From: an uncultured Spirochaetota bacterium
Lineage (GTDB): Bacteria > Spirochaetota > Spirochaetia > SZUA-6 > CAVTHK01
Assembly: GCA_963734495.1 (NCBI GenBank)
Contig: CAVTHK010000011.1
Location: 544,001-608,000, forward strand
DNA: 64,000 nt
Direction: 5' to 3'
In this document: one piece after another, positions 20,213 through 32,536 of the stretch
How positions within the stretch are numbered: the first letter of the stretch is position 1
Layout of the letters: every line of letters starts with the position of its first letter
Notes under the pieces: model-generated
What the model was told of the DNA's origin: nothing
Database searches by the model: none
What the model saw: only the letters and a program-made list of their open reading frames with translations
Translations under genes and position numbers: made by a program

Positions 20213-21287
20213 ATGGCGGCGCTCTCCCCGGCACAGCGCTGGGTCTCCCGGGTCGGCGAACGATGGGCCGTCCTCTTCCTGATCCTGCTCGTCGTGGTGT
20301 TCAGCCTGGTCGACTCGCACTTTTTCGCCTTCAGGAATTTCAACAACATCCTGTATTTCTCGACGACCTACCTCCTGCTGGCGGTCGGCGAGACGTTCGT
20401 GATCGTCTCCGGCGGGATCGACCTCTCGGTCGGCTTCGTCATGGGCTTCGTGGGCGTCGTCTCTGCGATGGTCATGCGCGACCTGCACGCGGCCGGGTGG
20501 CCTCAAGGCGCGAGCATGATGCTGGGCGCCGGCGTCGGGCTCGCGCTCGGCTTGATCCCCGGCCTGCGTCAACGGCGTGCTCGTGGCGCGGCTGCGCGTG
20601 CCGCCGTTCATCGCCACCCTCGGCACCTACGGGGTGGCCAACGGCGTGGCCCTCAACCTCTCCAAGGGCTTCCCCATCACGTTCCTTCCCCCGAGGGCCG
20701 GCGAGATCGGGAACAGCTTTCTCGCGTATGTCCTGCCCGGCCGGGAGTTCCGGTTCTTCCGCAGGCCCGAAGGGATCATGAATGACCAGCTCCGCAACCT
20801 GGTCGGGATCCTGCCGGGTACCGTGATCGTGACCGCCGCCGTCGTCGGGGTGTTCGCGTTCGTGCTCGGCCGCACGCGCTTCGGCCAGCACACCTACGCG
20901 ATCGGCGGCAGCCAGGACGCGGCCATCAGGGCCGGGATCGACGTGCCCGGACACCTGATGCGCATCTACCTGATCTCGTCGTTCCTTGCCTCGTTCGCCG
21001 GCGTTCTGTACGTGTTCCGCTCCGGCGTCGGGAACTTCACCACCATGAGCGCCTCGTACGAGCTGTTCGCGATCGCAGCCGTGGTCATCGGGGGCGCGAG
21101 CCTGTTCGGCGGCAAAGGCGGAATCGGCGGGACGACCGTCGGGATACTGATCCTGCTGACTCTGGAGAACGGGCTGACGATCACGGGGATCCCGGCCTTC
21201 TACCGCTACATCGCCACCGGCGTCATCCTGATCGCGGCCGTCGTCATCGACCAGGTCGCGCCTGAGCGCGAGGCCCGCGGTGAGTAG
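20213..21287 (+). CDS. Sugar ABC permease (RbsC-like), with an apparent +1 frameshift near 20567
   Basis: 'GGIDLSVG', 'PPFIATLG', 'YAIGGS'; the adjacent paralog reads 'IPGLVNG' where this copy has an extra C. Confidence 0.85.
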
Positions 21288-22422
21288 CCCGTCGAGCCCC
21301 GCCGCGGGAACCGCGGTCGGGCGCGGGCCCGCGGCCGCGCGAGAGCATCCCGGTGGTCCCGCGCGCGCCTACGCGTGGATCGGCCGGAACTGGGCATTCC
21401 TCTTCCTGCTGCTCGAGGTCGTGATCTTCGGCGTTCTCGGGAGGCGGTTCTTCGGGCTCGAGAACCTTCAGAATATCCTGGTCGCTTCCACGGCGGTGCT
21501 CCTGATGGCCGTCGGCGAGACCTTCGTGATCATCACGGGCGGGATCGACCTCTCCGTGGGGTTCGTGATGGGCTTCGCCGCCGTGAACTGCGCCAAGGCC
21601 ATCGTGTTCTTCGAGTCGATCGGCGTCCCCGACGGAGGCGCGATCCTCCTCGGCTCGAGCGCGGCGCTCCTTGTCGGGCTGATCCCCGGGCTGGTCAACG
21701 GGACGCTGATCGCCCGCCTGAGCGTGCCGCCCTTCCTCGCGACGTTCGGCATGTACGGCATCGCTTACGGCTTTTCGGAGATCCTCTCGAAGAACACGCC
21801 GATCTCGGTGCTGTCGCCGCTCGCCGGGCTCATCGGCAACGAGTACATGCTCTACGTGCTTCCGGGCAGGGGGCTGTGGCTCTTCTCCAGGCCCGCCGAC
21901 CTGGCGCCGCTGGAGCTGCGCAGGCTGGTCCCGCTGTTCCCGAACATCGTCGTGATCAGCCTGGTCTTTGTCGGCATCTTCGCCTTCGTGCTCGCTCGCA
22001 CGCGCTTCGGGCAGCACACGTACGCCATCGGCGGCAGCCAGGACGCGGCCCTGCGGGCGGGCATCGACGTGCGACGGCACCTGACGCGCATCTATATGCT
22101 GTCGTCGTTCTTCGCGTCGCTGTCCGGGGTCATGTTCGTCCTCAAGTACGTCACCGGCAGGGCCGACGCGGGCAGCGCCCGCATGCTCGACGCTGTCGTC
22201 GCGGTCGTCGTCGGCGGCGCCAGCCTGTACGGCGGCACGGGCAGGATTCGCGGGACGCTGATCGGCGCATTGATCATCGCCACCCTGGAGACGGGGATGG
22301 TGAACCTGAGCGTCCCTTCGCACAACCGCTACATCGCCATCGGTGTGATCCTGGTCATCGCGGTGCTGATCGACCAGTTCTTTCCGGAGCTCGGCCGCAA
22401 GGGGAATAACGGAGGGCGCTGA
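21280..22422 (+). CDS. Sugar ABC permease (RbsC-like)
   Basis: 'GGIDLSVG', 'PPFLATFG', 'VVGGASLYGG'. Confidence 0.9.
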   Translation: MSSPSSPAAGTAVGRGPAAAREHPGGPARAYAWIGRNWAFLFLLLEVVIFGVLGRRFFGLENLQNILVASTAVLLMAVGETFVIITGGIDLSVGFVMGFAAVNCAKAIVFFESIGVPDGGAILLGSSAALLVGLIPGLVNGTLIARLSVPPFLATFGMYGIAYGFSEILSKNTPISVLSPLAGLIGNEYMLYVLPGRGLWLFSRPADLAPLELRRLVPLFPNIVVISLVFVGIFAFVLARTRFGQHTYAIGGSQDAALRAGIDVRRHLTRIYMLSSFFASLSGVMFVLKYVTGRADAGSARMLDAVVAVVVGGASLYGGTGRIRGTLIGALIIATLETGMVNLSVPSHNRYIAIGVILVIAVLIDQFFPELGRKGNNGGR

Positions 22423-22423
22423 C

Positions 22424-23188
22424 ATGGAACCGACGCTGCGAGTGCGCGGCCTGACCAAACGGTTCGGCGGCCTGACCGCGGTGGACCGCGTGGACCTGGA
22501 AGTGTTCCCCGGCGAGGTCGTCGGCCTGCTCGGCGACAACGGGGCCGGCAAGTCCACGCTCATCAAGATGATCTCCGGCGTCTACCGCCCCGACGAAGGC
22601 GAGATCTTCTTCGAAGGAAAGGAGACAAAGCTGGGCAGTCCGATGAACGCCCTCGAGCTCGGCATCGAGACCCTGTACCAGGACCTGGCCCTGGCGGAGA
22701 ACCTGAACGTCTACTCCAACATCTTTCTCGGACGGGAGAAGACCAGGCCCTTCCTCGGCGTCATCCCGGTGCTCGACCACGACGCGATGCACGCCGAGGC
22801 GAGCAAGGTTCTGAGGCGCCTGGACATCGAGATTCCGTCCCTCCTCAGCCGCATCAAGACGCTCTCGGGCGGCCAGAGGCAGGCCGTGGCCATCTCGCGC
22901 TCGATCTACTGGAACGCCCGGCTCCTGATCATGGACGAGCCCACGGCGGCCCTGGGGGTGGCCGAGCAGAAGAAGGTGCTGGACCTGGTCCGCACCCTGC
23001 GCGCTCAGAGCATCCCGGTGATCATCATCAGCCACCAGCTCTACGACATCTTCTCGGTCTGCGACCGGCTGGTCATCATGAGGCGGGGCGAGAAGGTGGC
23101 GGAGCGGCGGACAAAGGAGACGACGCCGGACGAGGTCGTCGGCTTGATCATCGGATCGGACCTGGCGGAGCGGATCGGCCGAAGCTGA
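22424..23188 (+). CDS. Sugar ABC ATP-binding protein (single NBD)
   Basis: 'GDNGAGKS', 'LSGGQRQ', 'MDEPTAALG'. Confidence 0.92.
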   Translation: MEPTLRVRGLTKRFGGLTAVDRVDLEVFPGEVVGLLGDNGAGKSTLIKMISGVYRPDEGEIFFEGKETKLGSPMNALELGIETLYQDLALAENLNVYSNIFLGREKTRPFLGVIPVLDHDAMHAEASKVLRRLDIEIPSLLSRIKTLSGGQRQAVAISRSIYWNARLLIMDEPTAALGVAEQKKVLDLVRTLRAQSIPVIIISHQLYDIFSVCDRLVIMRRGEKVAERRTKETTPDEVVGLIIGSDLAERIGRS

Positions 23189-23203: not shown

Positions 23204-23560
23204 CTACTCCTCGACGCTTTCGAGGCGGACTTCGATCCGGTCCCAGAGCTTCTGGAGGTTCTCGAGCGATCTGCGCTGCCACTGCAGCGCCCGGTTGCCG
23301 ATGAGGGTCACCGGGGCCCGGTCCATCTTCTTGACGGTCAGCAGGAATTCGCACAGCGTGCTGATCCCCGAGCTGTTGAGGAACTCCAGCCCCGTGAAAT
23401 CGAGCTCCAGGCGGGGCACGCCCGTGTCGTAGGCCGTCAGCAGGAAGTCGCGGATCCTGCCGTACTCCTGCCGGTGCCAGAGCCGAAGCGAGCCTTCGAA
23501 CGAGACTCTGCCCTGTTCATGGTCGAACGAGATCTCGTAGTCTTCGTCGCGGAGCCTCAC
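23204..23560 (-). CDS. STAS-like anti-anti-sigma-type protein (Slr1659/SiaC-like)
   Basis: 'LDFTGLEFLNSSGI' phosphoacceptor motif; C-terminal 'WQRRSLENLQKL'. Confidence 0.75.
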   Translation of the reverse strand: MRLRDEDYEISFDHEQGRVSFEGSLRLWHRQEYGRIRDFLLTAYDTGVPRLELDFTGLEFLNSSGISTLCEFLLTVKKMDRAPVTLIGNRALQWQRRSLENLQKLWDRIEVRLESVEE

Positions 23561-24165
23561 CCGAGGGCCTCCTCCGGAATCAGTCTGACCTGGACGGAGA
23601 CGTTGCCCGTCCCGCGTCCGCCTCCCGGCATGAGCTTCACGCCCAGGCCGACGCGGAAATCATGGACAAGGGTCAGCAGTCCCAGCCGGGACGCGTCTTC
23701 GGGCCGCATCTCCCTCTGAATCGTCTGCAGGTACAGCGCCTCGATGTCCGGGGCGCCGGCCAGGTCCTTGGCCAGCTCCACGAATTGCGCGGCCTGTGTC
23801 TCCCGGGCGGAATTGTCGACCTGCACCACGACCTCGTCGCGCAGCCCGAAAAGGGCGATCTCTATGGCCGAACTCGCCGGCTGCGAGAACTTGACCGCGT
23901 TCTCCACCATCTCATTGAGGATCGTGGAGAGGCTGTTCCGCATGGACCTGGTGTACCGGTACTTGCGCGCGAAGAATCCGGCCACGAAATCCGCGGTCAA
24001 GCCGCAGAGCTGCCAGTGCTCGGCGAGATCCTGCGCGAGGACCGACAGGCGGATGATGCACCGCGACACGGAGGGGGTCTGCCGGTAGGTCCCGGCGACG
24101 GCCAGCGCCTGCGCGGTCGGCAGGCTCCCCCGGGGGCGACGCTTTCCCTTGCTTCGCGTATCCAT
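23557..24165 (-). CDS. HATPase-fold Ser/Thr kinase (Slr1658/SiaB-like)
   Basis: 'WQLCGLTADF', N-box 'NEMVENAVKF', 'SRLGLLTL'. Confidence 0.75.
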   Translation of the reverse strand: MDTRSKGKRRPRGSLPTAQALAVAGTYRQTPSVSRCIIRLSVLAQDLAEHWQLCGLTADFVAGFFARKYRYTRSMRNSLSTILNEMVENAVKFSQPASSAIEIALFGLRDEVVVQVDNSARETQAAQFVELAKDLAGAPDIEALYLQTIQREMRPEDASRLGLLTLVHDFRVGLGVKLMPGGGRGTGNVSVQVRLIPEEALG

Positions 24166-24168
24166 GGG

Positions 24169-24831
24169 CTACTCGCGCGCCACCGCGTTGCGCCCGGCCC
24201 ACTTGGCCCGGTAGAGCGCCGTGTCCGCGCGCTGGGTGACCGACTCCACGTTGTCGCCGGGCCCGATTCCGGTCACCCCGAAGCTGCACGTGATGCGCCC
24301 GACCCTCTTGAACGGATGCTCTTCGACGGTCGCGCGGATCCGCTCCGCCAGCCTCTGGGTGTCGTCGCCGTCGGCGGCGGTGAGAATCACGAACTCCTCG
24401 CCGCCCCATCGGGCAAAGATGTCGTCCTGCCGGATGGCGCCGCGGACCACCATGATGAGCTCCACCAGGACGTCGTCGCCCGCCCGGTGGCCGTACTGGT
24501 CGTTGACCTGCTTGAACCGATCGATGTCGAACATGATGAGCGATGTTGCCGCCGGAGGACTGCTGCGCCGTTCGAGGTTGCGGTTGAGCGTGTCGTGGAA
24601 CTTGAGCCGGTTGAAGATCCCGGTCAGCGGGTCGGTGGTCGCCTGAACCGTGGCGACCCGCACCCTCCGGTCAAGCTCGTTCTCGATCAACGTGCCGTGC
24701 TCGACGGTGTTCTGGTAGACGAGCCGCAGCTCGTCGATCTCTTGCCTGAGACGGGCGATCTCCGCTTCCAGACGCTGCACTCGAGCCCGCTCCTGCTGCA
24801 GCTCCATCTGGACATTCTCGATATCCTGCAT
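24169..24831 (-). CDS. Diguanylate cyclase with N-terminal coiled coil
   Basis: 'TDPLTGIFNR', 'DIDRFKQVND', RxxD I-site 'RQDD', active site GGEEF. Confidence 0.92.
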   Translation of the reverse strand: MQDIENVQMELQQERARVQRLEAEIARLRQEIDELRLVYQNTVEHGTLIENELDRRVRVATVQATTDPLTGIFNRLKFHDTLNRNLERRSSPPAATSLIMFDIDRFKQVNDQYGHRAGDDVLVELIMVVRGAIRQDDIFARWGGEEFVILTAADGDDTQRLAERIRATVEEHPFKRVGRITCSFGVTGIGPGDNVESVTQRADTALYRAKWAGRNAVARE

Positions 24832-24900
24832 CTCCGTCCGGCAAGTCTCCCGCTACTGCGACCCGGCGAGAGGGCTCCAGCCGCCCGTATGGCCGCCGAT

Positions 24901-24928
24901 ATTATACAATATAGGCGCACGCGGTCAA
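24901..24928 (-). promoter_or_regulatory. Sigma-70-type promoter for the DGC-kinase-STAS operon
   Basis: Minus strand TTGACC-N16-TATAAT. Confidence 0.55.
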
Positions 24929-25079
24929 GGCGGAGGCCATTCCGGAGCATCCCGGGGCCGAAAGAGGGCATCCGGAGCGCTCCGTCGTCGTTGTGTCCGG
25001 GCGACTCGGGGGGCCGGCAGGCTTCCCACCGCCGCGACCGAACGCCGGCAGGCCGCAGGCGCCGGGTGGGGAAGGGTCG

Positions 25080-26564
25080 ATGGCCGAATCGAGCGGCGTG
25101 AAACAGAAAGTCCAGCCGCACGCAACGTTCGAGAGCACGGTCCGGGACCTCATCGGCCAGAATCGGCTGAGGTTCCCGTCCGTGCTCGAGCGGGTCTTCC
25201 GGGCGGACTACTACGAAAAATACGGCGCGATGACCCGGATTGCTCTGGGGATGGCGTTCGCCTTGTACTCGACCTTCGGGCTCCTCGACCGCTTCCTCGC
25301 TCCGGAGGTCTACCGCACCATCTGGCTGATCCGCTTCGGCATCGTCGATCCCATCATGGTCGTCGTCATGGTGCTCAGCTTCTTCCCGTTCTTCCGGTCG
25401 ATCGCGCAGGGGGTCCTGAGCGTGGCCACGCTGCTCGCGGGGCTCGGCATCGTGGCGATGATCATCGTCCTCGGCAACTCGCAGGCCTCCCTCTCGTACT
25501 ACGCCGGCCTGATCCTTGTCCTGATGTGGCTGTACACGTTCCCTCGCATCCGCTTCGGCTACGCCACCCTGGTCGGCTGGCTGATCGTGGTCGCGTACGA
25601 GCTCGTGGCCGTGGTGCATCAGAAGATGCTGGTCGACCCGCGGACGATCGGCATGTTCGTAAACAACAACTTCTTCTTCATCGGCGCCAGCGTCATGGGC
25701 ACGATCGTGAACTACCTGATGGAGGTCTCGGCCCGCCGGGAGTTCCTCCAGACCCAGCTCATCGCCGAGGAACAGGTCCTGCTGGAACGGGAGCGGAACG
25801 AGCTGCGGGACCGCAACACCATGATCAAGCGCGAGCTGGAAATGGCGAGGGCCGTCCAGCAGTCGCTGATACCGCGGGAGTTCCCGTCGGAGTACCTGCA
25901 CGCGATCTACCGCCCGATGGAGGAGGTGGGCGGCGACTACTTCGACATCTTCCGTCTCGACGGCGGACGCAAGATCGGGATCTTCGTGAGCGACGTCTCC
26001 GGCCACGGCGTTCCGGCCGCGCTGATCGCGGCGACGATCAAGGCCGTGCTCTCCGAATCCAGGCGGCTGCAGCAGTCGCCTGGCCGCCTGATGATGCACC
26101 TCAACGACGTGATTTCCCGCCAAACCGAGCACTACTTCGTCACCGCCTTCTACGGGATCTACGACATCGAGGGAAAATCATTCACATGGACCAACGCGGG
26201 ACATCCCCTGCCGCTCCTCTGCCATGGAGGCGCGGTCAGGGAGGTGGTCGCCCCCAAGACGCACGTGCCGCTGGGATTCCTCCCCAACTCGGAGCTGAGC
26301 GAAAAGGGCGAGACCTACGGCGAGTCCCGTATTCGCCTGACGGCCGGGAGCAGGCTCATTCTGTTCACCGACGGCCTCGTCGAAGCCACGCCCAAGGGCG
26401 ACCGGTCCACGCAGTTCGGAGACGTGATCGCCCGCACTGTGGTGCGTCTGGCCGCTCTGGCGCCCAAGGAGTTTCTGCAGGAGCTTCTGAAGGCCGTGAC
26501 CGAGTTCTGCGGCGGGGACGACTTCGCCGACGACATCTGCGCCATCTGCCTCGACATCAAGTGA
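25080..26564 (+). CDS. Membrane-sensor PP2C (SpoIIE-type) phosphatase
   Basis: About 6-7 TMs including 'SYYAGLILV'; 'VGGDYFD', 'DVSGHG', 'FTDGL', 'DDI'. Confidence 0.9.
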   Translation: MAESSGVKQKVQPHATFESTVRDLIGQNRLRFPSVLERVFRADYYEKYGAMTRIALGMAFALYSTFGLLDRFLAPEVYRTIWLIRFGIVDPIMVVVMVLSFFPFFRSIAQGVLSVATLLAGLGIVAMIIVLGNSQASLSYYAGLILVLMWLYTFPRIRFGYATLVGWLIVVAYELVAVVHQKMLVDPRTIGMFVNNNFFFIGASVMGTIVNYLMEVSARREFLQTQLIAEEQVLLERERNELRDRNTMIKRELEMARAVQQSLIPREFPSEYLHAIYRPMEEVGGDYFDIFRLDGGRKIGIFVSDVSGHGVPAALIAATIKAVLSESRRLQQSPGRLMMHLNDVISRQTEHYFVTAFYGIYDIEGKSFTWTNAGHPLPLLCHGGAVREVVAPKTHVPLGFLPNSELSEKGETYGESRIRLTAGSRLILFTDGLVEATPKGDRSTQFGDVIARTVVRLAALAPKEFLQELLKAVTEFCGGDDFADDICAICLDIK

Positions 26565-26684
26565 AAACGGCCTGCTTCCGGCCGTCGCCGTCGATTTCGT
26601 CCTCGTCTCTGAATCGGTCCTGTGGTAGGATGTGAAGGGTGACTGCGGGAACCCGCTGCGCAGGCTGCATAGGCAGGTGAAACA

Positions 26685-27179
26685 GTGACCAAGACATTCA
26701 CCCTGACGGTCGAGCCGCGATGGGAGGCCGTGGACGATGCCAGGCGCAAGAGCATCGGCTTCCTGGACGCGGGCCGCGTCTCCGCCGAGAGGATCCAGGC
26801 GCTGAGCATGGTCGTGTGCGAGCTCCTCGAAAACGGGCTCAAGTACGGCCACTTTCGATCGGATGAGGACAAGCTGACTCTGGAGATCACTCTCAGCCCG
26901 GAGGACGCCACGGTCGAGGTTCTGAATCCTTTCGACGAGGCGGCGCGCAAACATCTGCGGAGGCTGGACCAGACCGTGCAGTGGATCCGGGGATACCAGG
27001 ATCCTTTCCAGGCGTACATCGAGAAGCTCAAGGAAGTGGCCAAGAAGCCGCTGGACGACCAGGAGAGCGGGCTCGGTCTGGTCCGCATCGCTTACGAGGG
27101 CAGGGCCATTCTCGATTTCTTCGTCCCGGAGGACGGCATCCTGAACGTCTCGGCCGTCGCCAGGTTCGGGCAGGAGTAG
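26685..27179 (+). CDS. HATPase-fold Ser/Thr kinase (anti-sigma/SiaB-like)
   Basis: N-box 'ELLENGLKYG', G-box 'SGLGLVRIAYE'. Confidence 0.8.
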   Translation: MTKTFTLTVEPRWEAVDDARRKSIGFLDAGRVSAERIQALSMVVCELLENGLKYGHFRSDEDKLTLEITLSPEDATVEVLNPFDEAARKHLRRLDQTVQWIRGYQDPFQAYIEKLKEVAKKPLDDQESGLGLVRIAYEGRAILDFFVPEDGILNVSAVARFGQE

Positions 27180-27183
27180 CACC

Positions 27184-27555
27184 GTGGAATCGACCATATC
27201 CCATACGAGCGAAGATCTGACCATCACGCTGTCGGAGAACGAGGCGGTCGTGCTCAAGTGGCTCGGGCGCAGCATGATGAGGAACCCGGGCGGGTTCGTC
27301 ACTCCGATCCTGCTGGACGGGCTCAACGCCTCCACGCGGGCTCAGAAGCGCCTCGTGCTGGACTTTACCGAGCTCGAGTACATGAATTCCTCGACGATCA
27401 CCCCCGTCATCAAGATCCTGGAGAGGGTCCGCCGGGGCAGGAACGAGCTCACGGTGGTCTACAATCGATCCCTGCAGTGGCAGGAGCTGTCCTTCTCGGC
27501 GCTCCGCATCTTCCAGACGGCCGATGGCCGGGTCGCCATCAAGGGAAACGGTTGA
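27184..27555 (+). CDS. STAS/SiaC-like protein
   Basis: 'LDFTELEYMNSSTI'; 'LQWQELSF'. Confidence 0.75.
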   Translation: MESTISHTSEDLTITLSENEAVVLKWLGRSMMRNPGGFVTPILLDGLNASTRAQKRLVLDFTELEYMNSSTITPVIKILERVRRGRNELTVVYNRSLQWQELSFSALRIFQTADGRVAIKGNG

Positions 27556-28962
27556 TGAGCCAGGAATGCCCGGGAATCCAGGCCTGGGTCGAGGAAGAAG
27601 GGCGGAGAGTCGCGATCGAGGCTCGCCACGCCTCGCGATACTCGCTCTGGGTGCGATTCCTAGGCAAGGGCGCCCGCAGAAACGGAAGCGAATTCTCCCG
27701 GCTGTTCCTCACGGTCCAGGGCGAGGAGTTCGAGTTCGGAAGGTGCCGCCTGGTGACTGAGCCCAACATCGAGGGCTACGCGGGGCGGCTCGTGCTGATC
27801 GAGGAATTCAACGACTTCGAGAGCCTGCTCTTCCGCAGGCGAGTCGACCGGCTGCAGAGCCCGTTCATGAACCTCCCGCTCCTGCTCGACCACAAGCGCC
27901 AGATCGCGCCCGAGTTCAGGGACTACGCTGCCGGTCTCACCTATGACCTCAACGTGTACAAGAGCCTGTTCGACGCGGTGGACGCGAAGCTCGACGGCGA
28001 GCCTGCCCACGTGCGGGCCGTCATCGAACGCGGCGTCATCGCGAACGAGGGCGCGCAGTTCCACGATTTCATGAGTGACCGGCATGAGGAGCTCAACCGC
28101 ATCGTCGCGGACTTCAGCGACGAAGACCACGAGCGTCACGGCTTCTACCTGAGGCGCCAGCTCTGGAGCATCATCATGTGCTCCCCTTTCATGGCCCGGA
28201 CCAATCTCAAGCCGCGGGGCTATGCCGGGGACTCCGAGATGATGACGATGATCTACAAGAACGAATACAGCGGCGACTCGACCTTCGCCAAGGTGCTGAA
28301 CAAGTTCCCCCTGGGCGCGCCCGCCGCGCAGGCGGTGCGCAACCGGCGCGGGATCGTCGCCGAGGCGCTGCGGAGCTTCCGCGCCGAGGTCGCCGCCGAG
28401 CGCCGCTCGAGGCCGCTGCGCGTGCTGTCCGTCGCCTGCGGCCCCGCCTGGGAGATCACCGACATCGTCCGAGCGGCCGCCGACGCACAGAACATCCACT
28501 TCACCATGTTCGATCAGGACCAGTACGCGCTCATGGAGGTCGCATCGCGGGTCGCCGAGACCGAGCGCCGCCTGGACGTCGCGCTTTCCGTGGACTACCT
28601 GAGGGAGTCCGTGCGCACGGTCCTGGTGACCCGCGAGCTCGAGGCGAAGTGGGGAAGGTACGACTTTGTCTACTCCATGGGGCTGTTCGACTACCTCACG
28701 CCCTCCCGTCGCGCGCGCGGTGCTGGTCCGGCTGTACCGGCTGCTCGAGCCAGACGGCCGGATGGTCATCGGCAATTTCCGCGTGGGCAGCCCGGGCCGG
28801 AACTTCATGGGATACTGGCTCGACTGGGTGATCTACTATCGCAGCGAAGAGGACTTCAAGGAGCTGGCGCAGGCGCTGCCCGGAGCGCAGTCGCGGATCG
28901 AGTTCGACAGCACGGGCGTCCAGATGCTCCTGCACGTGACCAAGCCGTCGGGTACCGGCTGA
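27555..28962 (+). CDS. Class I SAM-dependent methyltransferase, PhcB-like (putative fatty-acid methyl-ester signal synthase), with an apparent +1 frameshift near 28703
   Basis: 'KPRGYAGDSEMM', 'AVRNR', SAM motif 'VLSVACGPA', 'DFVYSMGLFDYL'; the C-terminus 'GNF...WLDWVIYYRSEE' continues in the +1 frame. Confidence 0.75.
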
Positions 28963-28981
28963 CGGGCCCGCGAGGTTGCGA

Positions 28982-30384
28982 ATGAGCGAAAGGTTCTGGC
29001 CGGGACGACGGGCGGGCAGGGGCGGCGAAGGCGGGCCCACGGAGGCCGACGTCGCGTCGTTCACCTACGGCTCCGGCGACCTGGACCTCTATATCAACGC
29101 GATCGTCCACGATTCGCTGCGCACTCTCGCCATGCTCGGCATCGTCCTGGTGCCGATGTTCTTCCTGCTCGACTACTTCATGATGCCGCCGCAGCTCCTG
29201 GCCCGATTCGGGATCTACCGGCTGGCCTCCACGGTCATAGCCCTCGTCCAGTTCGTCATCGTCCGCAACACGCGGCCGGGACGCTGGTCCTACGTCCACG
29301 CCCACTTCATCTCCCTGCAGGTCGCCTTCAGCATCACGTTGATGACCATCGACCTGGGCGGGTTCGACTCGAGCTACTACGCGGGGCTCAACCTGGTGAT
29401 CATCGGGGTCAACCTCCTGCTGCCCTGGCGCGCGGTGCACTCCACGTCCAACTGCGCTGGCGATCATCGCCATGTACGTCGCCCTGAACCTGGTATCTCC
29501 CCACAAGCTACGCCGCGACCGCGCTGATGAACAACCTGTTCTTCCTCTGCAGCACCGCGGTCATCGCCATCAGCATCGGTCACGTCAGGCACCGGCTCAT
29601 CCGCAACGAGTTCCTGCTGCTGGTCGAGCTCAAGCGGGCCCGCGACGCGCTCTCCAGCGAGATGGATCTGGCCAAGCGCATCCAGACGGCGCTGCTGCCC
29701 CGCAGGGTGACCATGCCGGGCTACGAGGTCGCCGCGACCATGGTCCCCGCCAAGGAGGTCGGCGGCGACTACTACGACGTCATCGAGACCACGCGGGGGA
29801 CCGCGTGGGTCGCCATGGGCGATGTTTCGGGCCACGGAGTCGATTCGGGGCTCGTCATGATGATGGCGCAGACCAGCATCATCGCGGCGCTCGACGCCGA
29901 CAAGACCTCCGGCCCGTCTTCCGTGCTCGCGTCCGTCAACCGGGTGATCCGCGAGAACGTGGCGCGGCTGGGCTCGGAGCACTACATGACCGTCACCCTT
30001 TTGCGGCTCGACGGCGGGACGGTCACCGCGGCCGGCAAGCACCAGGACATCCTGGTCTACCGGGCGGCCGAGCAGCGCTCGGAGGTGATCCCCTCGGCCG
30101 GCACCTGGATCGGCATCGCCGACGACATCGCCGGATACCTGAGCGATTCGTCCTTCGATATGGGTCCGGGCGACGTGCTGCTGCTGTTCACCGACGGGAT
30201 CACCGAAGCGATGAACGACCAGCGCGAGATGTACGGCCAGGAGAGGCTCCAGCTGAGCCTGGATCGGTACGCGCACCTGCCGGTGGCGGGCATCGTGGAG
30301 CGGCTGATGGACGACGTGCGCGCGTTCCGCTCCGAGCAGCTGGATGACATGACTCTGGTGGTGATCAGGAGAATCGCGCAGTAG
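28982..30384 (+). CDS. Membrane-sensor (PhcS-like) PP2C phosphatase, with two apparent +1 frameshifts (about 29456 and 29506)
   Basis: TM sensor with 'SSYYAGLNLVIIGVNLLLPW' and 'NNLFFL'; PP2C motifs 'VGGDYYD', 'DVSGHG', 'FTDGITE', 'DDMT'. Confidence 0.8.
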
Positions 30385-30445
30385 AGAGGCGCCCGCCCTC
30401 GACGGCGGGCGCCGGCTCGGTTACATTGTCGGCGAAGGGGGGGCC

Positions 30446-30814
30446 GTGCCCGACCGGAATCTGGAGAGAAACAACCTCATCTATTATCTCAAGGTATCGG
30501 ACGTGTCGACGGGTCGCCGGCTTGGCTATCTGGCCGACATCAGCACGGCCGGGCTCATGCTCATGACGGACGACCCGCTGCCCGCGGACGTGGCTTACAG
30601 GCTCAGGATCGAGCCTCCCCACGCGCGCCAGGGAGAAGCGATCGCGGTCTCCGCCGTCACGAAATGGTCCGACAAGGACAAGCATTCCGCCTTCTACAAG
30701 ACGGGGTTCGAGCTCAAGGACACTTCGGCCGCCGAGCTCAAGTCGATCAAGCGCCTGATCAAGGAGTTCCTCTACGAGGAGCCCGAGGAGGACGCGGAGC
30801 TGCCCGCCGACTGA
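30446..30814 (+). CDS. PilZ-domain protein
   Basis: RxxxR ('RNLER') and DxSxxG ('DISTAG') c-di-GMP-binding motifs. Confidence 0.8.
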   Translation: MPDRNLERNNLIYYLKVSDVSTGRRLGYLADISTAGLMLMTDDPLPADVAYRLRIEPPHARQGEAIAVSAVTKWSDKDKHSAFYKTGFELKDTSAAELKSIKRLIKEFLYEEPEEDAELPAD

Positions 30815-30832: not shown

Positions 30833-31537
30833 TCAGCGCCCTCCCGTTTTCGCCGCGAGGAGCCTCACGGGCGCGCCCGAGGCGTACTCTCCCTCGAGCC
30901 TGAGCGGCGCCGGGATGAGCAGGACGCGCTCGCCGAGGATCCGGGCGACTTCACCGCCCACGTTCTCTATGATGAAGGTATCGCTGCCGAGCAGAGCCCT
31001 GTGGTTCGCCGGCGCAAACGGGACGTCACGGTATTGCTCCTGGAGGTCGACGTCGGGCGCGTCGATGCCGAAGAGCCGGGCCCCTGCCGCGACCACCCAC
31101 CGGGCGGCCTCGAGGCTCAGCGTGCGATACTGCTGGTAGTAACGGTAGGGCTCCGACTTGAAGAGCGGCGCCCAGCCCGTGTAGACGACGAGGGCGTCGC
31201 CCTTTCGCAGCTCGAGGCGGCCCGACGACAGGGCCGCCTGCAGGTCCGGCAGGGAGATCTCCCGCGGCCCTCCCTGCGCCGGTCCGTATTTCGCCGAGAG
31301 GTCGACCACCACGGCATCGCCGATCAGCTCCCCGATCCTGATCGCGTCGAGCCTCCTGCCCTTCTCGGTCATGTGCCACGGGGCGTCCATGTGCGTGCCG
31401 AAATGGAGGCTCATCGTCACGATCGCGTGCCGGCAGCCGTGGCTCGCGAACATCTGGATGTTCCTGAAGTGAGCGAAGCCGAAGGGATGATAGGTGTCCT
31501 CGTCGAATCCGTGCGTAAGGTCGTAGAAATCCGGCAT
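30833..31537 (-). CDS. Cyclase-family metal-dependent hydrolase (kynurenine formamidase-like)
   Basis: 'HFGTHMDAPWH', 'GIDAPDVD', 'IIEN', 'GAPVR'. Confidence 0.85.
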   Translation of the reverse strand: MPDFYDLTHGFDEDTYHPFGFAHFRNIQMFASHGCRHAIVTMSLHFGTHMDAPWHMTEKGRRLDAIRIGELIGDAVVVDLSAKYGPAQGGPREISLPDLQAALSSGRLELRKGDALVVYTGWAPLFKSEPYRYYQQYRTLSLEAARWVVAAGARLFGIDAPDVDLQEQYRDVPFAPANHRALLGSDTFIIENVGGEVARILGERVLLIPAPLRLEGEYASGAPVRLLAAKTGGR

Positions 31538-31597
31538 GGGTTCCTCCCGGCCTGAGGCCGCGGCTCCCGCAGCAGACGGGATCGGAAGCGTTCGTCC

Positions 31598-32536
31598 TCA
31601 GGCCTTGCGGCTGCTCGCGAAGATGATCGCGAGAATGATGACCCCGGTCAGGATGTAGCGCAGGCCGATGGTGAACTTCAGAATATCGAGAACGTACAAG
31701 ATCAGCAGCAGAAGCAGGGAGGCGCCGATGACGCCCGGTATGTTGGAGTCGCCTCCGGCGATGCTGCTGCCCCCGATCACGGGAACGGCGATCGAGTTCA
31801 GCAGGTACTCGCGGCCCATGCCCAGCGTGACGCCTCCGCCGAACGCCGAGAGGAGGACGCCCGTGAGCCCCGCGAACAGCCCGCTCAGGATGTAGGTGAC
31901 CGACTTGTTGGCGTCGACGTTGATCGCCGCGAGCGACGCCGCCTTGGTGTTCTGTCCGATGGCGTGGATGTAGCGGCCGTAGCGCGAGCGGGTGAGCGAC
32001 AGGTGCATCGCCGCCGAGATGGCGACGATCAGCAGGAAGAGGAGCGGAACCGGCCCGAGCTTGATGTTCACGAAGGCCGCAAGCGCCGGCGGAGGCTTGA
32101 TCTGCAGCCCCCGGAAAAAGACGATCGAGACGGTCTGGACGATGAAGCCCGAAGCCATGGTCGCGATCATGGGCGGGATCCGCAGGAGCCTGATCAGGCC
32201 GAAGTTGAAGGCGCCGATCGCGACGCCCGCGGCGAGGCCGGCGAGCAGCCCCCACGCGATGTTGCCGTCGACCGCGTTCATGGCCTTCATGGCAACGAAC
32301 CCGGTGAGCCCGATCGTGTAGGGGACCGAGAGGTCGATGTTCCCGGCGCCGAGAGTGATCACGAGCATCTGCCCGATGCCGACGAGCGTGAAGAAGGAGG
32401 CGAAGCTCGCCGACGCGGTGAGCGTCCCCGTGGCATCCGCGGAGACGAGCGCGATCACGGCATAGACGACCACCACGCCGACGTAGGACCAGACCCATCG
32501 GGTGGCGAGGACCTCGGACAAACGACCGTTAAGCAT
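31598..32536 (-). CDS. Sugar ABC permease
   Basis: 'GNIDLS', 'PPMIAT', 'VIGGSSIAGG'. Confidence 0.9.
   Translation of the reverse strand: MLNGRLSEVLATRWVWSYVGVVVVYAVIALVSADATGTLTASASFASFFTLVGIGQMLVITLGAGNIDLSVPYTIGLTGFVAMKAMNAVDGNIAWGLLAGLAAGVAIGAFNFGLIRLLRIPPMIATMASGFIVQTVSIVFFRGLQIKPPPALAAFVNIKLGPVPLLFLLIVAISAAMHLSLTRSRYGRYIHAIGQNTKAASLAAINVDANKSVTYILSGLFAGLTGVLLSAFGGGVTLGMGREYLLNSIAVPVIGGSSIAGGDSNIPGVIGASLLLLLILYVLDILKFTIGLRYILTGVIILAIIFASSRKA

Follow-up and report, generated by a model that had tools for sequence, protein, structure and literature searches.

A divergent spirochaete gene island as a candidate Phc-like signalling circuit with phosphatase-ended receptors

An uncultured Spirochaetota bacterium (SZUA-6; CAVTHK01) carries a divergent nine-gene island that combines a methyltransferase, two membrane phosphatases, two kinase/STAS pairs, a diguanylate cyclase and a PilZ protein. 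The island lies at positions 23204–30814 of the window, by which we mean the whole 64,000-nucleotide stretch analyzed here (assembly GCA_963734495.1, contig CAVTHK010000011.1, positions 544,001–608,000 of the forward strand); all island coordinates are window positions. We lean towards reading it as a Phc-like chemical signalling circuit, in which phosphatase-ended receptors would drive a serine/threonine partner switch and cyclic di-GMP (c-di-GMP) signalling. By profile alignment, the methyltransferase is a nearly full-length homologue of PhcB, and the membrane domains of both phosphatases share homology with the PhcS sensor domain. The best case for the enzyme product as the ligand of the receptors is comparative, because the same enzyme and membrane-domain families travel together in two different wirings.

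Island architecture

The window has a G+C content of 66%, and its coding frames are clearly marked by the G+C content at third codon positions (GC3). The GC3 phase and the list of open reading frames (ORFs) place nine genes in two divergent operons at the coordinates below. The first-pass annotation, made from the sequence alone, had described the same divergent island, with a cyclase, a kinase and a STAS protein leftward and a membrane PP2C, a kinase, a STAS protein, a methyltransferase, a second membrane PP2C and a PilZ protein rightward. This layout was confirmed by the GC3 phase, the ORF list and the family models, and the family models also confirmed the gene contents, with weak scores for K2 and S2.

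23204–23560, minus strand: S1, STAS-like phosphoprotein of the slr1659 superfamily, 118 residues, motif LNSSG (NF047705, 109.3 bits, cut-off 100; weak STAS/STAS_2 matches)
23557–24165, minus strand: K1, kinase-like protein (GHKL-type) of the slr1658 superfamily, 202 residues (NF047703, 120.8 bits, cut-off 100; weak HATPase_c match)
24169–24831, minus strand: diguanylate cyclase, 220 residues, a coiled-coil stalk of about 60 residues followed by GGDEF (PF00990, 137.6 bits)
24993–26564, plus strand: TP1, six-helix PhcS-like membrane domain (type T-b) joined to PP2C, 523 residues (SpoIIE, 144 bits; T-domain model, 204.7 bits); another possible start is the ATG at 25080
26685–27179, plus strand: K2, cassette-type kinase-like protein, 164 residues (HATPase_c_2, E 2e-4; slr1658_superfam, 42.3 bits, below cut-off)
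27184–27555, plus strand: S2, cassette-type SiaC/STAS-like phosphoprotein, 123 residues, motif YMNSS (SiaC 19.5, STAS 17.7 and slr1659_superfam 32.6 bits, all below cut-offs)
27555–28962, plus strand: PhcB-family S-adenosylmethionine (SAM) methyltransferase with one extra base near 28700 (tblastn of an intact relative; hhalign to PhcB orthologues)
28976–30384, plus strand: TP2, PhcS-like membrane domain (type T-a) joined to PP2C, with extra bases near 29454 and 29508 (SpoIIE, 129.3 bits; T-domain model, 170.5 and 74.5 bits on two pieces)
30446–30814, plus strand: PilZ c-di-GMP receptor, 122 residues, motifs RNLER and DISTAG (PF07238, 27.7 bits, cut-off 22.5)

A PhcB-like methyltransferase

The N-terminal 381 residues of the methyltransferase match at least 1556 proteins of approximately 465 residues, and many of these carry the JGI name [quoted passage not shown]. 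Neither piece of the frame-broken gene matched a Pfam or NCBIfam model, and a PDB sequence search with the methyltransferase returned nothing below E 0.3. An intact protein of 468 residues from another data set (P0001) is 96% identical to it. The AlphaFold (AF2) model of P0001, with a predicted local distance difference test (pLDDT) score of 88.2, consists of a beta barrel (residues 8–81), a helical domain (102–278) and a Rossmann domain (288–462). In Foldseek, the fold is nearest to small-molecule methyltransferases, with 3ocj as the best match. PilZ annotations occur on 10–84% of the members of its neighbour clusters in the Atlas. We do not claim c-di-GMP binding by the N-terminal barrel, because the family alignment contains neither RxxxR nor DxSxxG.

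To find a reference for the Phc system, we sampled 401 genomes from the GTDB class to which one gammaproteobacterial carrier belongs; strong matches were found only in G031 (full length) and G182 (PhcB-type, partial). The genes at the G182 locus (L099) run in the order HtpG, methyltransferase, histidine kinase, REC-HisKA-HATPase and REC, and the histidine kinase has a histidine at position 230. The Ralstonia kinase is written as H230-PhcS in PMC11960443, and PhcR is described as a prototypical Rec-HK (PMC13269768). We treat L099 as a phcBSRQ-type operon because its gene order, His230 and Rec-HK agree with these descriptions of PhcS and PhcR. The reference set comprises six PhcB orthologues from phcBSRQ-type operons and six PhcS orthologues from the family of G182; no conclusion draws on the unpublished genome G578.

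P0001 aligns with the L099 methyltransferase at 32% identity over 297 residues (BLASTP, E 1e-42). A profile of 22 methyltransferase sequences aligns with that of the six PhcB orthologues over 418 columns (27–464 versus 52–489; hhalign 100%, E 1.6e-43), and the two have in common the non-SAM motifs RTxxKPxGYAGDxEM, AQAxRNR and GLFDYL. On these alignments, the enzyme is a nearly full-length homologue of PhcB, in agreement with the PhcB-like synthase that had been proposed, and it does not cluster with an unrelated family.

When a plasmid collection was searched with P0001, only relatives of the C-terminal half were recovered, the best of them at 30.7% across 58% of the query; a full-length enzyme was not found in that collection. 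These C-terminal relatives include 123 Rhizobium plasmid records, which match residues of approximately 219–464 at about 28% identity.

A PhcS-like membrane domain in both phosphatases

The membrane domain of TP1 and TP2, called T here, is approximately 214 residues long. It was modelled from the two window proteins as a hidden Markov model (HMM) and iterated on related loci. The T HMM scores 47–71 bits on all six PhcS orthologues, against at most 8.9 bits for 2000 shuffles of a PhcS N-terminus and −2.0 for the reversed sequence. Alignment of the T profile with the PhcS profile covers 198 columns (hhalign 97.6%, E 3.5e-12). Residues L69, D70, Y140, G143, Y173 and F199 (numbering of the TP1 segment) are invariant in T-a, T-b and PhcS. 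The model is also specific, as only five matches at E≤10 were found among the 32,241 six-frame ORFs of the source genome. Three of these are pieces of the island, and a further one is a partner-switch protein with 28.8 bits. We conclude from the profiles that the T domains of both PP2Cs are homologous to the PhcS sensor domain, a resemblance that the first-pass annotation had anticipated.

A second partner-switch module of the source genome (G000) lies outside the window. On contig C3 (C3:440835–443609), a long ORF combines T HMM (28.8 bits), PP2C HMM (161.6 bits) and K HMM (46.3 bits) matches and is followed by an S-like ORF (31.4 bits). The module has no methyltransferase and resembles a fused phosphatase-kinase with a STAS partner.

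Both window receptors end in SpoIIE/PP2C, and neither HisKA nor REC was identified in the island by the family scan. The T tree was rooted on PhcS, and the broken T fragment of TP2 was left out. It shows two clades: T-a, with 72 sequences of which 69 carry PP2C, and T-b, with 40 sequences of which eight carry PP2C. TP1 falls in the T-b clade. TP2 was assigned to T-a because it is 58% identical to a T-a protein of G028. We also put 19 further T proteins through Pfam, and 17 of them have a histidine-kinase-type output: PAS-HisKA-HATPase with or without REC (12/19), HisKA-HATPase-REC without PAS (2/19), Hpt-HATPase (2/19) or HATPase alone (1/19). PAS-GGDEF-EAL and PP2C were each found once (1/19). 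The T-b outputs vary by lineage between PAS-HisKA-HATPase-REC hybrid kinases, PAS-GGDEF-EAL, Hpt-HATPase and PP2C; examples among loci L013–L092 are L013:10958–13255, L042:10874–14098 and L044:3476–5569.

The AF2 model of the T domain (window positions 25080–25860; pLDDT 90.9) is a bundle of six transmembrane helices with a long exit helix leading to the output. The closest structure is the 6TM domain of the Pseudomonas aeruginosa cyclase ImcA (8wcn; TM-score 0.68, root-mean-square deviation 2.8 Å), which is described in PMC10904736. The membrane domains of the mammalian adenylyl cyclases AC8, AC9 and AC5 come next. This fold bears on an alternative that we regard as quite unlikely, namely that the island is a cell-autonomous loop for lipid or envelope homeostasis. 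The enzyme would then methylate a fatty-acid intermediate of the membrane, and the composition of that membrane would be what the six-helix domains sense, without any signal passing between cells. Such a loop would suit a T fold that is like cyclase anchors without a known diffusible ligand (ImcA and the mammalian enzymes), the weak AC_N matches of the domain, and the lack of a conserved export gene in the cassette at the 80 loci described below. However, fatty-acid methyl esters do not require an exporter. Moreover, the homologous pair in Ralstonia is reported to make and sense a secreted signal (PMC8578825, PMC11960443).

Switch proteins and c-di-GMP parts

Active diguanylate cyclases carry the motif GG[D/E]EF. 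The island cyclase keeps GGEEF, and RQDD stands as the I-site five residues upstream in the translation. Together with its PF00990 score, the GGEEF motif predicts an active GGDEF enzyme. The model for SiaD gives 151.2 bits on it, below the cut-off of 290. The c-di-GMP-binding motifs of PilZ domains are RxxxR and [D/N]xSxxG; the last protein of the rightward operon has both (RNLER, DISTAG) and scores above the PF07238 cut-off, so it belongs to the PilZ family.

K1 and S1 pass the 100-bit NCBIfam cut-offs for the slr1658 and slr1659 superfamilies, respectively. K2 and S2 fall below the same cut-off and are relatives only. The sequence NSS is present in both S1 and S2. Across 37 aligned sequences, S69 and S70 of S2 do not vary, and Y66, M67 and N68 hardly do. 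The phospho-switch face of SiaC is described as N67/T68/S69 (PMC8457831).

The cassette in other genomes

A scan with one genome per species gave 181 relatives of the methyltransferase, of which the best 80 loci were kept. Going by their record titles, they come from Desulfobacterota, Spirochaetota (including Leptospira weilii and L. alstonii), Myxococcota, Fidelibacterota and Calditrichota, and further from Gammaproteobacteria (Saccharospirillum, Natronospirillum, Aquisalimonas), Bacteroidota, Nitrospirales and SAR324. The fractions of gene order below were counted only at loci with room on the contig.

K2 homologue directly upstream of the methyltransferase: 71/77 loci
K and S directly upstream of the methyltransferase: 70/77 loci
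T-domain gene directly downstream of the methyltransferase: 67/73 loci
T joined to PP2C directly downstream of the methyltransferase: 65/73 loci
Whole order K-S-methyltransferase-T-PP2C: 62/71 loci with room on both sides, in at least eight phyla
Second T gene following, usually joined to a histidine kinase: 29/65 loci

The arrangement is not a product of chance, because the same order recurs at most of the 80 loci in other genomes. The combination of kinase, STAS protein, methyltransferase and membrane PP2C had been expected to be conserved elsewhere, and the whole order bears this out. Three features had not been foreseen: a cassette spread over many phyla, two receptor paralogues, and a version with histidine-kinase receptors in many relatives. 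T-a and T-b both occur within 8 kb at 33 of the 80 loci. Exceptions to the order include L059, where the methyltransferase stands alone, and L077 and L085, which have the order methyltransferase-K-T-histidine kinase. PAS-GGDEF-EAL lies directly upstream of K at all six of the spirochaete and gammaproteobacterial loci tested, and a PilZ gene follows the cassette at 13 of the 80 loci. Closer to the source, three of the 31 genomes of its taxonomic order have the full-length enzyme (G000, G009 and G028); the order in G028 is K-S-methyltransferase-TP-PilZ, and in G009 it is S-methyltransferase-PilZ. The run shares for habitat were all ≤0.25, and no habitat conclusion was drawn.

The gene order also bears on what the methyltransferase is for. 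It could be an output of the partner switch under the control of S2. The cues sensed by the PP2Cs, from membrane or environment, would then be unrelated, and the methyltransferase product would not be the ligand of the receptors; we consider this unlikely, though less so than the homeostasis loop. In its favor, the S2 and methyltransferase genes are adjacent, overlapping or abutting, no other output gene is apparent in most cassettes, and DUF1987/SiaC-type proteins have been proposed to modulate adjacent proteins (PMC8457831). The predicted complex of the methyltransferase with S2 scored 0.15 (mark 0.32) and speaks neither for nor against binding. Against it, the methyltransferase travels with the same receptor family both in the histidine-kinase wiring of phcBSRQ and in the wiring with PP2C, histidine-kinase or GGDEF-EAL outputs, and this is what a synthase–receptor pair predicts. 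Regulation of the enzyme by S2 is, in addition, compatible with feedback from S2 in a signalling circuit, and the two are not exclusive.

Reading frames and surroundings

The methyltransferase had been thought to need a frame correction, and the break is real: a +1 shift lies near 28700. TP2 has two further +1 shifts, near 29454 and 29508. In tblastn, P0001 matches the methyltransferase with residues 1–383 in one frame and 383–468 in the next. The G028 orthologue matches TP2 with residues 4–156 in one frame and 180–471 in another, and between these two segments a sensible transmembrane stretch is found in the third frame. We compared the contigs of four public runs over 28300–29800. The Logan contigs of X2 (95–99% alike) and X3, from related strains at 90–99% likeness, have one letter fewer at all three places, and an X2 contig ending at 28699 runs on without the extra letter. 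Since none of the three extra bases is present in these contigs of related strains, the genes are intact elsewhere. The assembly itself consists of 18 contigs, yet has a marker completeness of 83%.

We read the three breaks as assembly errors or changes private to the strain, and not as decay of the system. The opposite case, that the island of the source genome is a decaying remnant whose methyltransferase and TP2 became pseudogenes by real mutations, seems to us improbable. The three extra bases do fall within approximately 810 base pairs, and the same-genus genome G001 gave no match to the methyltransferase. However, in-frame stops and other signs of decay are absent from the methyltransferase and TP2, and GC3 is 0.84–0.97 across the bulk of both genes, with dips only in windows at frame breaks or gene boundaries. 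The broken methyltransferase is 96% identical to an intact protein, the X2 and X3 contigs are without the extra letters, and the combination of 18 contigs with only 83% marker completeness fits indel errors. Similar frame errors are possible in other genes of this assembly.

The divergent intergenic region contains one further feature:

24901–24928, minus strand: promoter-like site TTGACC-16-TATAAT facing the leftward operon (11 of 12 consensus positions; a consensus match only)

The motif gave two matches, both at this site, against 0.8 ± 1.0 in shuffles. The flanks of the island at 21280–23188 (permease and ATPase) and 30833–32536 (permease) are ABC-transporter-like, as judged from the translations alone. 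An ORF of 234 residues lies to the right of the island at 30833–31537.

Proposed model of the circuit

In the circuit that we favor, the PhcB-family methyltransferase would make a hydrophobic methylated small molecule, which by homology may be a 3-hydroxy fatty-acid methyl ester. This product would partition into membranes and be read by the paralogous six-helix receptors T-a and T-b. The state of the ligand would set the PP2C activity of both receptors against the kinases K1 and K2, and the balance of phosphatase and kinase would in turn determine how far the N-S-S serine of S1 and S2 is phosphorylated. In its unphosphorylated form, S1 would most likely bind to the stalk of the neighboring cyclase and switch on c-di-GMP synthesis, in the manner of SiaC and SiaD. 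The c-di-GMP would be read by the PilZ protein, whose gene closes the rightward operon. S2, whose gene stands just before that of the methyltransferase, may feed back on signal synthesis.

The first-pass annotation had read the island as a lipid-signal synthase with sensors fused to phosphatases, and had named three findings that would count against this: a methyltransferase from unrelated families, membrane domains unlike the PhcS sensor, and a gene combination not conserved in other genomes. We found the opposite on each point, and its reading is supported as far as sequence carries.

Several observations weigh on the other side. The enzyme chemistry is predicted from homology. In the profile alignment, identity to the PhcB orthologues is 26%, with low confidence over the N-terminal third, and for this reason the substrate may differ. 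K2 and S2 are under every curated cut-off. None of 32 T segments is recognized by Pfam; MASE8 (PF20968, cut-off 26.2) matches none of the 32 at E≤1 and gives 22.6 and 24.2 bits on two PhcS N-termini, and 11 of the 32 have weak, sub-threshold Pfam matches to AC_N. Ligand binding by PhcS rests on genetics in those parts of the cited papers that deal with it. Two of the nine genes in the window are out of frame. At 51 of the 80 loci, no GGDEF gene lies within 8 kb of the cassette, so that c-di-GMP is a lineage-specific and not a universal output. Finally, the absence of a methyltransferase match from G001, a genome of the same genus that is 99% complete, indicates that the island is dispensable.

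A wider reading is possible, and we offer it tentatively. The cassettes may together be a family of Phc-like systems that signal by methyl esters and extend across phyla, each with a PhcB-type synthase, two PhcS-type receptors, and a serine/threonine switch rather than a His-Asp relay as its primary transduction. They would then be a new and widespread class of cell-to-cell communication, of which the Ralstonia system would be a specialized offshoot.

Relation to known systems

No characterized system of this hybrid kind had been known to the first-pass annotation, and our literature searches, whose coverage leaves out subscription journals, likewise found no paper describing the cassette. New here are the homology to the PhcS sensor, the finding of two receptor paralogues, and a phcBSRQ-type operon as the reference. 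If the cassette works as we read it, the same synthase–receptor pair would underlie signalling across many environmental lineages and in some that are pathogenic, and a receptor for a lipid-type signal would act directly on a serine/threonine partner switch and on c-di-GMP. It would also provide a ligand hypothesis for three orphan sets: a six-helix domain that is akin to cyclase anchors and not covered by Pfam, the slr1658/slr1659 regulators, and the more than 1500 "PhcB-like" methyltransferases.

The kinase/STAS pairs have their nearest named relatives in slr1658/slr1659 of Synechocystis sp. PCC 6803, with K1 and S1 as superfamily members and K2 and S2 as weaker relatives. Only a regulatory mutant phenotype (recovery from iron starvation, pgr5 overexpression) is on record for the cyanobacterial pair, and no signalling chain is reported to be known for it (PMC7555055, PMC6525291). 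BgrRSTUWV of Sinorhizobium meliloti is described as a partner switch that controls a diguanylate cyclase (PMC8457831), and it is like the island in this respect.

The likeness to SiaABCD of Pseudomonas aeruginosa is one of logic. There, the phosphorylation of a small STAS-like protein with an N-[S/T]-S switch motif depends on a kinase and a membrane PP2C, and the free form of this protein activates a cyclase with a stalk and a GGDEF domain. The Sia-like switch that had been proposed for the island therefore stands as an analogy. As a statement of membership it does not, since none of the Sia cut-offs is reached: SiaA (NF038263) gives 36.6 and 58.7 bits against 700, SiaD (NF038266) 151.2 against 290, and SiaC (PF09345) 19.5 against 24.5, and no island protein matched the SiaB model at E≤0.1. 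The pairs instead belong or are related to slr1658/slr1659. The island further differs in its distinct sensor domain, its slr1658-type kinases, its two switch pairs and its embedded methyltransferase.

With Phc, the island has in common a synthase that is homologous over nearly its full length, from the N-terminal barrel through the helical domain to the Rossmann domain. The six-helix membrane domain of the receptors is also homologous, and synthase and receptor genes are adjacent in both. The receptor output is different: PP2C predicted to act on a kinase/STAS switch in the island, and a histidine kinase (H230) with the receivers PhcR and PhcQ in Phc. The family scan found no PhcR- or PhcQ-type genes in the island, which has instead two receptor paralogues, c-di-GMP enzymes and PilZ. 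Its host is a spirochaete and not a betaproteobacterium. The Phc product is methyl 3-hydroxymyristate or methyl 3-hydroxypalmitate, and that of the island is predicted by homology. Because its receptor output is not a histidine kinase and no Sia equivalog cut-off is reached, the island is, by these comparisons, a member of neither system; it is like Phc in its synthase and receptors and like SiaABCD in its switch and cyclase.

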